In this document: in pieces, positions 33,980 through 39,238 of the stretch
How positions within the stretch are numbered: position 1 is the first letter of the stretch
How the letters are laid out: every line of letters starts with the position of its first letter
From: Spirochaetes bacterium ADurb.BinA120
GTDB taxonomy: Bacteria; Spirochaetota; UBA4802; UBA5368
Direction of reading: 5' to 3'
Length of the DNA: 64,000 bases
Assembly: GCA_002069125.1 (NCBI GenBank)
Contig: MVZN01000001.1
Coordinates: 71,696 to 135,695 of the forward strand
Notes under the pieces: model-generated
What the model saw: the letters and a program-made list of their open reading frames with translations, nothing else
What the model was told of the DNA's origin: nothing
Database searches by the model: none
Program-made: the position numbers and the translations under genes

Positions 33980-34973
33980 ATACATCCTCAAACGCCTTCT
34001 GCTCATTGTGCCCACCTTTATCGGCATAAGCCTCATCACCTATGCAATGATACGCCTTGCCCCGGGCGACTATACTACGCTTCGAGCCGGACTTCAGGGC
34101 GAGCTCAAAGCGGGAGCTATAGGCAATGAAATAATAGAACAGGAAAAGAGGCTCTACGGGCTCGACAAGCCGGTCATCGTAGGGTACTGGGACTGGTTTT
34201 CGAAACTCGTGGTGTTCGATTTCGGGACATCCCGAAAGGACGGCAGGCCCGTCGCGGAGCGTATCGGCGAGGCGCTTCCCATCACCCTGGCGCTAAACAT
34301 TATAAGCATGATAATAGTGTACATCATTTCCATTCCGGGAGGGATTCTATCGGCGCTCAAAAAGGACTCCCTCTACGACCGGGTCTCGAGCCTGATACTT
34401 TTTGTGCTCTATTCGCTGCCGTCGTTCTGGGTGGGGCTTCTGCTTCTAATGGTGCTTTCGGGCGGAGACTATCTCAACCTGTTTCCGCTGGGCGGGATAG
34501 TCTCCGACTGGGCGGAGGATTTCGGCTTTTTCGACAGGATGTTGAACATTGCCTGGCACCTAATGCTTCCCGTGGCGACCCTCACCTACGGGGGCTTCGC
34601 CTTCCTCTCGCGCTATACGCGGGCCACCATGCTCGAGGTTATAAACCAGCAGTATATCATGACTGCGCGCGCCAAGGGGCTCTCCGAGAAACGCGTGGTC
34701 CTGGTGCACGCGTTTAGAAACTCTCTCGTACCCCTTGTCACGCTTATGGCGACGATCCTCCCCGGGCTTCTTGGAGGAAGCGTCATAGTAGAATCCATCT
34801 TCTCCATCCCCGGTATGGGCATGCTCGCCTTCGAGGCGATACTAGCGCGCGACATTCCGGTCATAATGGCCATCGCCTCTATCTCCGCGGCGCTTACGCT
34901 CCTCGGCATCCTCATCGCCGATATCCTCTACGGCGTGGTCGATCCCCGCATACGGCTGGAGGCAGGGCAATGA
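33972..34973 (+). CDS. ABC transporter permease (OppB/DppB-like)
   Basis: 333 aa, 6 TM, EAA-like loop; ATGA coupling to flanking genes. Confidence 0.9.
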   Translation: MIKYILKRLLLIVPTFIGISLITYAMIRLAPGDYTTLRAGLQGELKAGAIGNEIIEQEKRLYGLDKPVIVGYWDWFSKLVVFDFGTSRKDGRPVAERIGEALPITLALNIISMIIVYIISIPGGILSALKKDSLYDRVSSLILFVLYSLPSFWVGLLLLMVLSGGDYLNLFPLGGIVSDWAEDFGFFDRMLNIAWHLMLPVATLTYGGFAFLSRYTRATMLEVINQQYIMTARAKGLSEKRVVLVHAFRNSLVPLVTLMATILPGLLGGSVIVESIFSIPGMGMLAFEAILARDIPVIMAIASISAALTLLGILIADILYGVVDPRIRLEAGQ

Positions 34974-35953
34974 TCCGCTCCCGAGGCTATTGGGCCGGCG
35001 TATGGAGGGAGTTCCGGCGCAACAGGCTTGCGCTTTCGGGCCTTGTGGTGGTGCTCGCGCTCTTTGTTGTCGCGCTGCTTGCCCCACTTTTGGCCAACGA
35101 TAAAGCCTATATCTATATCTCGCAGGGGAAGGCGTATTTCCCGATTTTATTCGAATATCCGGAGCTCGCCGGCCTAAACTTTCGCGAGGAGTCCGAAAAG
35201 GCCTTCGTCATCATGCCGCCAATTCCTTACACGAGTTCCGAGTACGATCTCGACGCCATAGTCATACCGCCCTCGGCCCGGCACATACTCGGCACGGACG
35301 AACAGGGGCGGGACCTGGCGGCACGCATGATCCATGGTACGCGCGTGTCGATACTCGTCGGCTTTATCGCGGTGTTCATCTATGTTACACTGGGCATAAT
35401 CATCGGCGCGCTCGCGGGCTATTATGGCGGCGTGGTCGACATGCTCATCTCGCGCTTCATCGAAATAATCATTTGCTTTCCGACCTTTTTTCTCATTCTG
35501 ACCATACTGGCTCTCGTCGGCCCGAGCCTTGTAAATGTCATGGTCGTAATAGGGATAACCGGCTGGACGGGAATCGCGCGCATAGTGCGCGGCGAGTTTC
35601 TAAAGGTGCGCGAGATGGAGTTCGTTCAGGCCTCACGAGCCCTTGGCGCGCGAGACCGCTCCATAATTTTCAGGCACATGCTTCCAAACTCGCTCGCGCC
35701 GGTCCTGGTTTCGGCTACCTTCGGCATAGCCTCGACCATCCTTATCGAGTCGTCCCTTTCCTTTCTGGGTTTCGGCGTACAGCCGCCCACTCCGAGCTGG
35801 GGGGATATCCTTTCGCAGTCGCGCGATTTTATGGACTTCGCCTGGTGGCTCACCCTTGTGCCGGGTTTCGCCATCTTTATCACCATAACAGCCTATAATC
35901 TGGTGGGCGAGGGCTTTCAGGACGCGATAGATCCCCGGGCTGTAAGAAAATAG
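34970..35953 (+). CDS. ABC transporter permease (OppC/DppC-like)
   Basis: 327 aa, 6 TM, conserved permease loop. Confidence 0.9.
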   Translation: MIRSRGYWAGVWREFRRNRLALSGLVVVLALFVVALLAPLLANDKAYIYISQGKAYFPILFEYPELAGLNFREESEKAFVIMPPIPYTSSEYDLDAIVIPPSARHILGTDEQGRDLAARMIHGTRVSILVGFIAVFIYVTLGIIIGALAGYYGGVVDMLISRFIEIIICFPTFFLILTILALVGPSLVNVMVVIGITGWTGIARIVRGEFLKVREMEFVQASRALGARDRSIIFRHMLPNSLAPVLVSATFGIASTILIESSLSFLGFGVQPPTPSWGDILSQSRDFMDFAWWLTLVPGFAIFITITAYNLVGEGFQDAIDPRAVRK

Positions 35954-36001
35954 GCCCCGGCTTGGGACCGAAATCCCGCTATTCGACCGGGCTTTGCGCC
36001 T

Positions 36002-36022
36002 GCGCCTGCCGGGGGCAGACCG
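36002..36022 (+). terminator. stem-loop (ctgcc-ggg-ggcag) after oppC-like gene
   Basis: GC hairpin followed by A/T-rich tract at the GC-to-AT composition switch. Confidence 0.35.
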
Positions 36023-36111
36023 AGTAGGCGAAATTATTTGCTTACATGTTTGCCAAAAAAACAAAAATGTGCTTTACATACTCATTTGTATAGTTCTTTA
36101 TAAATTTTTAA

Positions 36112-36143
36112 GGGAATCTCCAAAAATCAGCATTAAGATTCCC
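36112..36143. repeat. 8-bp inverted repeat gggaatct-N16-agattccc in the islet leader
   Basis: exact reverse-complement arms. Confidence 0.55.
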
Positions 36144-36165
36144 ATAAAATGTAACTACAGGCATA

Positions 36166-36222
36166 TTCAATAATTTGGCTTTCCCGCCCGCCTTCGGCGG
36201 ATGGGAAAACCAAATTATTGGA
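36166..36222. repeat. composite stem-loop: 11-12 bp AT-rich inverted repeat (caataatttgg / ccaaattattg) enclosing a GC-rich hairpin
   Basis: outer arms are exact reverse complements; inner ttccc gcc c gcc ttc ggc g g atgggaa pairing; ~30 nt upstream of MTase start. Confidence 0.6.
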
Positions 36223-36254
36223 GGTTGCCTTAATATTAAAGCAGGATTACGGTT

Positions 36255-37568
36255 TTGAATTCTAAAATAATTATTGGCGATAGTCGCTCAATGAGTGAGA
36301 CTCGAGATCACTCAATAGATTTAATAATAACGTCTCCCCCATACTGGCAAATTAAAGATTATGAAAACGTTAAACAAATTGGATTTGGGCAAAACCTGCA
36401 TGAATATTTAAAGGATTTATATAAAGTATGGAAAGAATGTTATAGGGTAATTAAACCTGGAAGAAGGCTATGCATTAACATCGGCGACCAATTTGCTCGA
36501 TCTATTATTTACGGAAGGTATAAAATAATTCCACTTCATTCAGAGTGTATTTCCCAATGTGAAAGTATTGGTTTCGATTTCATGGGATCGATTATTTGGC
36601 AAAAAAAAACTTCAATGAACACGACCGGCGGTGCTACAATAATGGGCTCTTTCCCTTATCCTCCCAATGGAATGGTCGAGATAGATTATGAATACATCCT
36701 TATATTTAAAAAACCGGGTGACAGTATTAAGCAAGATATAGAAATAAAAAAGAAATCTGAGATAACGAAAGAAGAGTGGAAGGAATACTTCTCCGGCCAT
36801 TGGTATTTTGGTGGCGCAAAGCAAATCGAACACCAGGCAATGTTCCCTGATGAACTCCCGAAAAGACTAATTAAAATGTTTTCCTTTTATGGTGAAACTG
36901 TTTTAGACCCATTTTTAGGAAGCGGAACGACTGTAAAAGTGGCATTAGATTTAAACAGAAACGCTGTAGGTTACGAAATCAATGGAGATTACCTATCAAT
37001 AATTAAAAATAAATTAGGTTTCCCCGAAGATTGTTTATTTTCCAATCATTCTCTTGAAATAATAAACCAGAATATAACTATTATAGAAGAGGATAATGAA
37101 GTCCAATATAATCCGAGCGTTCAAGATGCTGATTACAAGATAGATCCAAAATTATTGAAATTTAAAAAAGGAGATAATAGTTATAAAGTCGTTTCAATTG
37201 AAAATAACGACACTCTTATTCTTAATACGGGCTTAAAGGTGAAATTATTAGGAGTTATAATTGACCCTGAAAAAATCGACGAATTAGTAAATTATTTAAA
37301 CGAATTCGTATTGAAAAAAGAGGTAATTCTAAAATATGATAAAAAGTATCGTCCAGTAACAAAAGACATGATTCATGCATATGTTTATCTAAAAAACAAA
37401 ATATTCATAAATAGTTATATTCTTAAATCCGGATTTGCAAAAGTGGATACCCGTACCGACTATGATTTAAGATATAAATTTTCTAATCTAAGAGACAATA
37501 ATGGAGTAATGGATGGCAAAGGAGTGGATATTAAACAGTGCAATGAATCGGTTCCAACTAAATTTTAA
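36255..37568 (+). CDS. beta-class N4-cytosine/N6-adenine DNA methyltransferase (SPPY motif IV first, FxGSGT motif I later) fused to a C-terminal staphylococcal-nuclease (SNase/OB-fold)-like domain
   Basis: N-term IIIGDSRSM...IDLIITSPPYW, DPFLGSGTT at ~aa 218. C-term ~170 aa matches the SNase signature (VSIENNDTLIL...KVKLLGVIIDPE; ...AYVYL...NSYILKSGFAKV). TTG start at 36255; AT-rich codon usage. Confidence 0.85.
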   Translation: MNSKIIIGDSRSMSETRDHSIDLIITSPPYWQIKDYENVKQIGFGQNLHEYLKDLYKVWKECYRVIKPGRRLCINIGDQFARSIIYGRYKIIPLHSECISQCESIGFDFMGSIIWQKKTSMNTTGGATIMGSFPYPPNGMVEIDYEYILIFKKPGDSIKQDIEIKKKSEITKEEWKEYFSGHWYFGGAKQIEHQAMFPDELPKRLIKMFSFYGETVLDPFLGSGTTVKVALDLNRNAVGYEINGDYLSIIKNKLGFPEDCLFSNHSLEIINQNITIIEEDNEVQYNPSVQDADYKIDPKLLKFKKGDNSYKVVSIENNDTLILNTGLKVKLLGVIIDPEKIDELVNYLNEFVLKKEVILKYDKKYRPVTKDMIHAYVYLKNKIFINSYILKSGFAKVDTRTDYDLRYKFSNLRDNNGVMDGKGVDIKQCNESVPTKF

Positions 37569-38145
37569 AAGAAACGTTGGTGCAGTTTCCCAAGAAATCA
37601 GGAAATGTTCGCCAAGATCGGTTGAAGATTGGAAATGCTACTATTTTGAGAAGGTGCGTCCTAAAGAACATATTGAAGATTTAGGAAAGAAGCTATATAT
37701 TAAAATAACAGAAGTAATAGCCGCAGAAGTTGAAGATATTACGGAAGAAGAATGCATACAATATATGTTTAAACTTGTAATCGACCGTACTTTTGACGGA
37801 TACATGACGGAAATAAAGACTATTTACGGGCAATTACAACAAGTCATTGATTTAAAAATTGAACCGGCCCCGGATAAATGGGATAGATTATACAACATTG
37901 ATTTTTTTATAAAAGTAAAAGACAAATATATTGGGCTTCAAATCAAACCAGTAAGTGGAGTATCCCATATACCAGAAATTTTTAAAGAAAGAAACAATCA
38001 AATGTTAACTCATAAAAAATTTACTGAAGAATTTGGCGGTAAGGTATTCTATGTCTATTCTTTAAAAGACGGTGAGAAAAAGAAAATACATAATCAGGAA
38101 GTAATTCAGGGAATTCAAGACGAGATACTTTTCCTAAGCAGGTAA
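37513..38145 (+). CDS. hypothetical protein, candidate restriction endonuclease partner (PD-(D/E)xK-like D...QxK motif)
   Basis: 210 aa, GGAG RBS 6 nt upstream, overlaps MTase 3' end by 56 nt, same AT-rich codon usage; motif NIDFFIKVKDKYIGLQIKP resembles D-x(n)-(E/Q)-x-K. Confidence 0.4.
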   Translation: MAKEWILNSAMNRFQLNFKRNVGAVSQEIRKCSPRSVEDWKCYYFEKVRPKEHIEDLGKKLYIKITEVIAAEVEDITEEECIQYMFKLVIDRTFDGYMTEIKTIYGQLQQVIDLKIEPAPDKWDRLYNIDFFIKVKDKYIGLQIKPVSGVSHIPEIFKERNNQMLTHKKFTEEFGGKVFYVYSLKDGEKKKIHNQEVIQGIQDEILFLSR

Positions 38146-38185
38146 GGCCGACATCCGAGCACAACGAAACGTACCTCCTTGGTTG

Positions 38186-38275: not shown

Positions 38276-39238
38276 ATGAAGGTGGTGATGGCGCAGCATT
38301 CAAGCCCGAAAGGAATATCGGCGAAAAGCATCATCATGGGGGCCGCGGCCGTCCTGGTCGCGGGATTGGCCTCATGCGCCTCACTTAGAGAGGGCGATCC
38401 GGATGTATACTTCCTGTTGCCCAGGGAGTCCGATATTCCCGGATGGGAGATAGTGGACGGACCGCACCGTTTCGATAAAACGAATATGGCCCTGTATATG
38501 GAGTCCGACGCGGCACTGCTAAGGGAGTATAGAGCCTGGAGCGTGGCGATGGCGATTTACAGGCCCCTGGGGGGCAGGCCGGAAACGCTTGCAGTATGGG
38601 TTTACAGGCTTGGTTCGCCCGTAGATGCATTCGGTTTTTACGCCAGAAAGGCGGCCGCTGTAAGCGGAATACCGGCTCCGCCGCTCGGGGGGGACGACAT
38701 AACGGCCTTCAAAAGCGGCCTCCTGCTAAGAAAGGGCGCCCATTTCGTTTCGATCGTCACCGACAGGCCGGAGGCCGGGGCTGATGCGGTAATTTTCGCG
38801 CGAATCGTTCTGGACTCCATACCGCCGGTGGAATCCGACCTGCCCGAGTGGTCCGGCTTGTTCGGCGCCGATGAAAAGAGGAACGATCTCGTCTATTATC
38901 CGAAGGGGGTGACCGGTGTTCCGCTTAGTGTGGAAATGTTCGTTCGCCGGAGGCTGGTCAGGGGGGCGCCTTACGAGGTGTACTACTCGCGAAGGCCGTC
39001 GATTTCATCGGCCATGCGCGATTTTACAGCCCTGCTGGACCGCGACGGAGGCGGCTTTACGCTAGCGAGTTCCGGCGACAGGCAGGCGGCTTTCAGGCTC
39101 CGACCGGACGGCGGGTACGTGTTCGCCGCAAGATACGAGGACGTCATCTTCGGCGTTTTGTTGGCGGGGACGCTGCCGGATGGGAACAGTGTTATCGGCA
39201 TTCTTATGGATGAGATCTCCGGCGCGGGGAAGGATTGA
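38276..39238 (+). CDS. secreted/lipoprotein of unknown function
   Basis: 320 aa, signal peptide with LAGLASC lipobox-like motif. Confidence 0.6.
   Translation: MKVVMAQHSSPKGISAKSIIMGAAAVLVAGLASCASLREGDPDVYFLLPRESDIPGWEIVDGPHRFDKTNMALYMESDAALLREYRAWSVAMAIYRPLGGRPETLAVWVYRLGSPVDAFGFYARKAAAVSGIPAPPLGGDDITAFKSGLLLRKGAHFVSIVTDRPEAGADAVIFARIVLDSIPPVESDLPEWSGLFGADEKRNDLVYYPKGVTGVPLSVEMFVRRRLVRGAPYEVYYSRRPSISSAMRDFTALLDRDGGGFTLASSGDRQAAFRLRPDGGYVFAARYEDVIFGVLLAGTLPDGNSVIGILMDEISGAGKD

Follow-up and report, generated by a model that had tools for sequence, protein, structure and literature searches.

In the 64,000-nucleotide window analysed here, from the Spirochaetota bacterium Spirochaetes bacterium ADurb.BinA120, composition and neighbouring genes delimit a low-GC island at 36030-38150 that holds a DNA methyltransferase (M) gene and a restriction endonuclease (R) gene only. 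GC content is 0.36 and 0.30 within 36001-38000, compared with about 0.53-0.60 in the flanks and about 56% in the genome. The island, about 2.1 kb long, sits between an oppC-like permease gene that ends at 35953 and a DUF6599 gene that starts at 38276, and both of these neighbours (ABC permease, DUF6599) have host composition; related cassettes in other phyla lie among unrelated neighbours. Judged by its sequence, the island is horizontally acquired. A search for an empty insertion site through the exact oppC-like protein found the island at all ten of the places listed, and no flanking direct repeats that would mark an insertion mechanism were found at the island, nor was there an Rfam match within it. 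Our protein search of plasmid records returned four distant Bacillales matches only, the archaeal pFZ1 not being among them.

The two genes lie on the + strand, as do all their features described below. The methylase ORF (36255-37568) starts with TTG and encodes 437 aa, and the endonuclease ORF (37513-38145) directly downstream encodes 210 aa, so that the two overlap by 56 nt (37513-37568). A ribosome-binding site, GGAG, lies at 37503-37506, 6 nt 5' of the endonuclease ATG at 37513, and with the overlapping methylase 3' end it forms a coupling region at 37503-37568. The preliminary description of this DNA had read the overlap and the good ribosome-binding site as translational coupling, and the ORFs and the GGAG site fit this. 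Among 66 related loci from many phyla, gathered with an alignment of closer relatives of the endonuclease, the same two-domain methylase was directly upstream in 52 and upstream with a gap in 8 more. The commonest overlap between the paired genes was 8 nt (24 of those 52), and overlaps of 50-56 nt were confined to the closest relatives, making the 56 nt seen here lineage-specific. The extra methylase tail (residues 415-437) was modelled as disordered by AlphaFold2 (AF2).

The 210-aa protein matched Pfam PF09568 (RE_MjaI) with E=1.4e-47 and 162.1 bits (cutoff 22.7) over profile positions 1-159 of 164, as well as two PADLOC type II endonuclease models (REase_II), and a 100% identical NCBI protein is already named 'MjaI family restriction endonuclease'. 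It has 4783 homologues, and close relatives at 65-83% identity occur across bacterial and archaeal phyla. These matches contradict the earlier view that the protein lacks a recognisable family signature; of the two roles then proposed for it, that of the methylase's restriction endonuclease partner is upheld by Pfam, PADLOC and the NCBI name, and that of a novel effector gives way to a large known family in which this exact protein is already annotated. Classified from sequence, the 210-aa protein is an MjaI-family type II restriction endonuclease, and the pair, already annotated, is an ordinary type IIP system. ATPase, specificity and helicase subunits are absent from the two-gene island, which has the type IIP gene layout. 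MjaI itself was earlier assigned to the PD-(D/E)xK superfamily (PMC2441816, PMC3424549).

The AF2 model of the endonuclease (pLDDT 93.9) shows alpha-beta-beta-beta-alpha-beta order, with a helical N-terminal half (about residues 1-111) and a nuclease core at residues 96-192. In a Foldseek search against the PDB, the matches with a recognisable fold were PD-(D/E)xK enzymes, at probabilities up to 0.99: bunyavirus and arenavirus cap-snatching endonucleases, archaeal Hjc, BstEII and the R2 endonuclease. Scores were modest (best E-value 2e-3, TM-scores 0.2-0.5), the TM-scores being low because the core alone aligns. The best structural matches, Hjc and the bunyavirus cap-snatching endonucleases, are minimal PD-(D/E)xK enzymes, but their substrates differ and no sequence relationship to them is detectable; unlike them, the endonuclease here carries a helical N-terminal region of 95 residues, and Gln stands in for its second acidic residue. 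Searches of PDB chain sequences with the endonuclease, both as a single sequence and as a profile, returned only TraC (E 0.75) and an OTU domain (E 0.023), and sequence and profile searches of the PDB found no experimental structure of any MjaI-family member.

Conservation within the family points to the residues of the active site. The endonuclease segment NIDFFIKVKDKYIGLQIKP carries D130, Q143 and K145. D130 is the sole invariant acidic residue among 30 diverse family members (25-56% identity), in which E100 and Q143 are conserved at 90% or more; E100, Q143 and K145 are all invariant among the closer relatives. In a few distant members of the diverse set, position 143 is itself a lysine and position 145 is not. 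E100 (codon 37810-37812), the predicted catalytic Glu on the strength of conservation, the model and a weak hhalign alignment, lies on the long helix 78-111 before the sheet. D130 (GAT, 37900-37902), which the diverse alignment and the model mark as the 'D' of the PD motif, stands at the start of strand 131-135, and Q143-I144-K145 (37939-37947), seen in both alignments as a QxK variant of (D/E)xK, falls in strand 138-146. The hhalign comparison with Hjc was statistically insignificant (probability 1.5%) and is illustrative only; it set the four predicted catalytic residues in register, with E100 opposite Hjc E9. The predicted active site is E100, D130 and Q143-x-K145, with an unusual Gln replacing the usual acidic residue. 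Since family conservation yields these same positions, the earlier guess of a D...QxK motif holds, and the PD-(D/E)xK core with Gln for Glu that it implied is borne out by Pfam, AF2, Foldseek, conservation and the prior classification of MjaI; the structure prediction and structural search proposed with it, run here as AF2 and Foldseek, led to PD-(D/E)xK nucleases. The MjaI family is very widespread, yet it is without a solved structure or a mutational analysis of this Gln-containing active site.

Pfam, PADLOC and PDB relatives divide the methylase into a beta-class N4/N6 domain (about residues 1-255), a linker, a domain resembling staphylococcal nuclease (SNase) and the disordered tail. It matched Pfam PF01555 (N6_N4_Mtase) at E=4e-46, and the PADLOC MTase_II model spans residues 3-409. 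Motif IV (TSPPYW, residues 26-31, 36330-36347) precedes motif I (FLGSGTT, residues 220-226, 36912-36932), and this order and the SPPY-type motif IV are those of the beta class. As a rule of thumb, an SPPY motif denotes N4-cytosine rather than N6-adenine methylation; the best PDB relative was TTHA0409 (2zie), and N4-cytosine methylases were among the PDB relatives. Nucleotide homology of the gene to its relatives starts at 36256, and the same 437-aa ORF is called in one NCBI assembly (GCA_035408725.1). We considered an A9 run at 36601-36609 as a site of frameshift or phase variation behind the 308-aa gene calls made for this methylase: the run was A9 in all eight contigs checked, so these calls are start-codon choices only.

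We put at roughly 85% the probability that the pair is a two-gene type IIP restriction-modification system in the classical mould of MjaI and MthZI, brought in on the 2.1-kb island by horizontal transfer. Its beta-class SPPY methylase would most likely place N4-methylcytosine (m4C) in CTAG on host DNA, and the endonuclease, probably a homodimer as is usual for type IIP, would cut unmethylated CTAG of incoming DNA using E100, D130, Q143 and K145 with a divalent metal. The M-then-R gene order, the overlapping frames and the internal GGAG would couple endonuclease translation to methylase expression. The MjaI system of Methanocaldococcus jannaschii (R.MjaI MJ0984 and M.MjaI; CTAG, m4C) is likewise a two-gene type II system with a beta-class N4-cytosine-type methylase partner, and its endonuclease also belongs to PF09568; the likeness is at family level, and its host is an archaeon whereas the host here is a bacterium of the Spirochaetota. 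The isoschizomer system MthZI (C/TAG), on Methanothermobacter plasmid pFZ1, similarly pairs an m4C CTAG methylase with an adjacent endonuclease and is mobile, but it is plasmid-borne, whereas the island here is chromosomal and lacks any plasmid context. Pairs of this type are standard defence and selfish modules; this one would act against phage or plasmid DNA with CTAG sites on its entry into the spirochaete, and may help to explain why the host genome avoids CTAG so strongly.

The CTAG specificity in this reading comes from characterised relatives. MjaI is active and specific for CTAG (PMC2615612), M.MjaI makes m4C at CTAG, and MthZI cleaves C/TAG (PMC11033074, PMC5867850); the enzyme here would presumably cut at that position too. 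In Persephonella sp. IF05-L8, the CTAG methylation seen by single-molecule sequencing is attributed to M.Pla5I, whose partner endonuclease is Pla5IP (PMC4752239 supplement). A Persephonella methylase with the same two-domain architecture, 65% identical to ours over 413 residues (full length), adjoins an RE_MjaI-family gene; we equate it with M.Pla5I on the basis of genome and neighbourhood rather than of a locus tag. The partner endonuclease there is distant (33% identity over 94 residues), and its gene is separated from the methylase gene by a 5-nt gap, whereas the genes here overlap. Among the 4-base palindromes of the window, CTAG stands out as by far the most depleted: base composition predicts 233 sites and a Markov model 44, but only 9 occur, none of them in the island. 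As CTAG depletion is common in bacteria with or without restriction, it counts only weakly towards specificity. Taken with the cited MjaI-family members, all of which recognise CTAG, and with the related methylase in a genome where CTAG methylation is assigned to the M and R pair, it suggests that the endonuclease probably cleaves CTAG. It is unlikely that this MjaI-family pair recognises another sequence, though type II families can include members of differing specificity, the likeness to MjaI and MthZI is one of family in an alignment that diverges down to 25% identity, and the depletion is non-specific.

A second reading takes the endonuclease to be inactive or in decay and gives the methylase a mainly epigenetic, regulatory role; it has a precedent in LomA of pathogenic Leptospira, like our host a member of the spirochaete phylum. 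LomA is an M.MthZI homologue with the same predicted modification, a CTAG m4C methylase whose endonuclease has been lost and which regulates the expression of genes (PMC7708080). LomA is thus an orphan, but the endonuclease here is present and intact: its ORF is full length, the conserved catalytic residues are all there and its translational coupling to the methylase is kept. Across 18 contigs of independent sample origin, neither ORF was disrupted and the endonuclease protein did not vary, which makes decay very improbable.

The C-terminal domain of the methylase (about residues 296-414, 37140-37496) was identified from profile matches, AF2 and alignment as a probable degenerate SNase-like OB-fold, predicted to be non-catalytic. 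The preliminary description had allowed that this domain might also be catalytic, giving the pair two different nuclease folds. Its likeness is weak and is to SNase only: against Pfam SNase (PF00565) it scored 13.1 bits (E=0.14), below the gathering cutoff of 21, although a few homologues do carry a precomputed PF00565 match; a profile of the domain returned SNase chains only from the PDB (E 0.002-0.03), and hhalign against SNase gave E=3.5e-5. AF2 modelled the domain at pLDDT of about 87-91 with SNase-like strand and helix order; a Foldseek search with the whole methylase gave a match list filled by methylases. The SNase reference sequence used for residue comparisons agrees with the PDB fragments from the profile search. 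Relative to SNase, the catalytic omega-loop is shortened by 9-11 residues, with loop 44-52 deleted, and across 19 family members the equivalents of D21, D40, T41, E43 and R87 are variable or hydrophobic; of the SNase catalytic and calcium-binding residues, the equivalent of R35 alone is kept (K or R). At methylase residue 366, in the loop matching the R87 region, strains of the species have either R or P. The domain is present in most relatives, being fused to the methylase C-terminus in 120 of the 120 close homologues listed and at 60 of the 66 related loci. Because the catalytic loop and residues are lost, a two-nuclease system is unlikely, and we rate its chances slightly below even those of a decaying endonuclease. 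The last of the alternatives, a methylase-coupled effector or toxin of a novel, non-nuclease kind, is effectively refuted by the strong Pfam and PADLOC matches, the nuclease fold and the conserved nuclease motif.

As a probable classical MjaI/MthZI-kind system, the pair offers little value beyond correct annotation, and only its extra methylase domain goes beyond what has been described for characterised CTAG systems. M.MjaI, M.MthZI, M.BfaI and HVO_0794 are 303-364 aa long (PMC5867850), whereas the methylase here, with its added SNase-like domain, has 437 aa. We suggest that this OB-like domain, predicted to be catalytically dead, most likely aids DNA binding. CcrM (PDB 6pbd), which structural searches matched to the catalytic domain, is likewise a beta-class methylase with an added C-terminal module, although that module differs in fold from the SNase-like domain. 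The C-terminal domain of CcrM binds DNA non-specifically and is the basis of our analogy. A bolder and more tentative proposal, to which we give somewhat less than even odds, is that the presumably dead domain is needed as a DNA-binding or dimerisation module and determines the way in which this widely transferred cassette methylates DNA. The commonest form of the partner methylase carries this degenerate nuclease-like domain, which is absent from the characterised archaeal enzymes.

We identified the 210-aa endonuclease (ORF 37513..38145, + strand) as a member of the MjaI family: it matched Pfam PF09568 (RE_MjaI) at E=1.4e-47 (162 bits, cutoff 22.7) over nearly the full profile, and two PADLOC type II endonuclease models matched it as well. 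A search of a large protein collection returned 4783 homologues, and a 100% identical NCBI protein, on 46 contigs, is named 'MjaI family restriction endonuclease [Spirochaetota bacterium]', so the statement in the preliminary description that the protein lacks a recognisable family signature was wrong. Experiments have shown activity for MjaI, the CTAG-specific type II enzyme from Methanocaldococcus jannaschii, which has MthZI as its isoschizomer (PMC2615612); MthZI cuts C/TAG, and M.MjaI produces N4-methylcytosine at CTAG (PMC11033074). Together with the adjoining 437-aa methylase, the endonuclease makes up an ordinary type IIP restriction-modification pair of the MjaI family, annotated before, on a small island acquired by horizontal transfer; the novelty claimed for the endonuclease is illusory, but the structural guess in the preliminary description was correct.

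The methylase ORF (36255..37568, + strand) has a PF01555 domain (Pfam, E=4e-46) in which TSPPYW (motif IV) precedes FLGSGTT (motif I), the order of the beta class, with SPPY as a rule typical of N4-cytosine enzymes; the closest solved relative is TTHA0409 (2zie). Nucleotide homology to related genes starts at 36256 and one NCBI assembly annotates this 437-aa ORF as well, making the TTG start credible. The 308-aa and 328-aa calls of other assemblies are start-codon artefacts, and frameshifts were rejected as their origin. A homopolymer in the catalytic domain (36601-36609) is A9 in all eight same-species contigs checked (L001-L008), and with the frame intact in 18/18 there is no sign of methylase phase variation.

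Four beta-class methylases that make m4C at CTAG, namely M.MthZI, M.MjaI, M.BfaI and HVO_0794, are 303-364 aa long (PMC5867850). Over 413 residues and both domains, the window's methylase is 65% identical to one from Persephonella sp. IF05-L8, whose gene adjoins an RE_MjaI-family gene on contig JNLJ01000005.1. Single-molecule sequencing of that strain assigned CTAG methylation to M.Pla5I, with Pla5IP as partner (PMC4752239 supplement), and we infer that M.Pla5I is this methylase. In the Persephonella cassette (L099, 3001-4868) the paired MjaI-family endonuclease shares only ~33% identity with the window's over 94 residues, whereas the methylase is conserved far better. Judged from these relatives, the methylase would modify host CTAG, probably as m4C, and a different recognition site for the pair is unlikely. 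The 64-kb window contains 9 CTAG sites (5386, 5766, 7636, 13241, 32417, 34842, 39062, 56737 and 60240), none in the island, where composition predicts 233 for the window and a Markov model 44 (observed/expected 0.04 and 0.20). CTAG is the most depleted 4-base palindrome, all others reaching at least 0.65 on the Markov scale. Such depletion agrees with a CTAG system, but we give it little weight because rarity of CTAG is common among bacteria.

Across 36001-38000 the GC content drops to 0.36 and 0.30, versus 0.53-0.60 in both flanks, indicating that this gene pair is a compact island of foreign DNA, flanked by an oppC-like permease gene and a DUF6599 gene. The ORFs overlap by 56 nt and a GGAG ribosome-binding site (37503-37506, +) lies 6 nt 5' of the endonuclease ATG; the ORF list, sequence and GC bore out these and all other sequence facts of the preliminary description. 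The ORF list and neighbourhood showed no controller protein at the locus, and the methylase-first order with overlapping frames would tie endonuclease synthesis to methylase synthesis. The endonuclease gene has the same neighbourhood in contigs of many samples, including GCA_035408725.1, GCA_029973775.1 and GCA_029565585.1. Both genes are intact in 18 same-species contigs from independent samples, and the endonuclease protein is identical in every one; a decaying endonuclease beside a methylase with a regulatory role, the situation of Leptospira LomA, is decidedly improbable against an endonuclease that is intact and invariant. In these strains (L001-L008, L089-L098), 36255-38145 (1.9 kb) shows 0-3 nt differences and the adjacent oppC-like gene (34970-35953) up to 33/984 nt, the left flank being far less uniform than the island. 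Either recent spread of the island among strains or variable recombination affecting the flank could explain this.

A 25-bp inverted repeat (36166-36222; 88% complementary, 3-nt loop, core GGCTTTCCCGCCCGCC TTC GGCGGATGGGAAAACC) lies 33 nt 5' of the methylase TTG start. It has no second copy in the window and no Rfam match, and the closest relatives do not conserve it 5' of their cassettes; a standard terminator was rejected since it lacks a T-run. As RNA, it would fold at -46.4 kcal/mol (z = -5.8).

Methylase residues ~296-414 gave a sub-threshold Pfam SNase match (E=0.14), and in the PDB the domain profile matched staphylococcal nuclease chains alone (E 0.002-0.03). Likewise, hhalign aligned the C-terminal domain to SNase at E=3.5e-5, and its AlphaFold2 model (pLDDT ~87-91) has strands and helices in the SNase succession. 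The suggestion that this domain is a second catalytic nuclease fold is contradicted by its alignment to SNase: it lacks loop 44-52, and among 19 family members the positions matching D21, D40, T41, E43 and R87 vary or carry hydrophobic residues (only R35 is kept, as K/R). Methylase residue 366, located in the loop that matches the R87 region, is R or P depending on the strain. The methylase is thus very unlikely to contain a second active nuclease. By analogy with CcrM, which has an extra C-terminal domain, we infer that this one may have a DNA-binding accessory role. It is a regular feature of the cassette: PADLOC methylase model PDLC03259 covers it too, and the close homologues listed (n=120; 335-437 aa) have at least 399 aa in all but one case.

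Among 30 aligned full-length representatives of the endonuclease family (25-56% identical to the window's protein), G96 and D130 are invariant and E100, G141, Q143 and P146 at least 90% conserved, while K145 is also invariant in the closer relatives. A few distant members have K at 143 and none at 145, suggesting that the lysine may have migrated. Two surveys placed MjaI in the PD-(D/E)xK superfamily by sequence analysis (PMC2441816; PMC3424549), and PDB chain sequence searches found no solved structure for any MjaI-family member. The AlphaFold2 model built from our alignment (mean pLDDT 93.9) has a long helix bearing E100 (78-111), strands at 116-118, 131-135 (D130 at its start) and 138-146 (with Q143 and K145), a helix (154-174) and a strand (178-186), the canonical succession for a PD-(D/E)xK fold. 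A Foldseek search of the PDB gave weak E-values (best 2e-3), TM-scores of 0.2-0.5 and probabilities up to 0.99; among the matches listed, those of recognised fold are PD-(D/E)xK enzymes (bunyavirus/arenavirus cap-snatching endonucleases, archaeal Hjc resolvases, BstEII and the R2 element endonuclease). A profile alignment with Hjc, non-significant alone, sets E100, D130, Q143 and K145 opposite its catalytic residues E9, D33, E46 and K48. Conservation, AlphaFold2 and Foldseek uphold the proposed D...QxK core and add an upstream Glu, E100. The endonuclease, probably a homodimer, would cleave unmodified CTAG, at a position likewise predicted, by metal-dependent hydrolysis at E100/D130/Q143/K145. 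The alternative of a novel effector is excluded by the Pfam match, the annotated identical protein and the Foldseek fold matches.

Endonuclease relatives occurred in at least 593 genomes in a scan of species-representative genomes, and the 80 that we kept (65-83% identical) belong to Spirochaetota, Planctomycetota, Bacteroidota, Omnitrophota, Desulfobacterota, candidate phyla and several archaeal lineages. Where upstream sequence sufficed (66 loci), a two-domain methylase lies directly 5' of the endonuclease in 52 and 5' across a 0.3-1.2 kb gap in eight; three have a different methylase 3', two a 5' methylase without the C-domain match, and at one no methylase was found. None of the 66 shares the window's neighbouring genes, which indicates that the cassette was inserted independently in different hosts. 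The commonest overlap is 8 nt (24/52 loci), the methylase stop lying 8 nt into the endonuclease gene in most relatives, and by this comparison the 56-nt overlap in the window reflects the loss of this early methylase stop. The last 18 methylase codons (37513-37568) are the conserved endonuclease 5' end in another frame, and the methylase tail (415-437), disordered in the model, is probably a by-product of stop loss.

Endonucleases 67-72% identical to the window's occur in Desulfamplus (L038, L040, L048), Promethearchaeota (L039) and Woesearchaeota (L088). The first four loci have a different methylase, ~32-36% identical and without the C-terminal domain (3' in Desulfamplus), and none was found within the sequence available at L088; this suggests partner swapping within the MjaI endonuclease family. 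The eight loci with 0.3-1.2 kb between the two genes (L032, L033, L044, L058, L061, L068, L072, L073) are mostly from Bacteroidota. The inserts at L032 (2889-3998; 369-aa protein, faint NucS_C match) and L033 (3200-3961; 253-aa protein, faint GIY-YIG match) could be further nucleases, or homing endonucleases, that entered the cassette.
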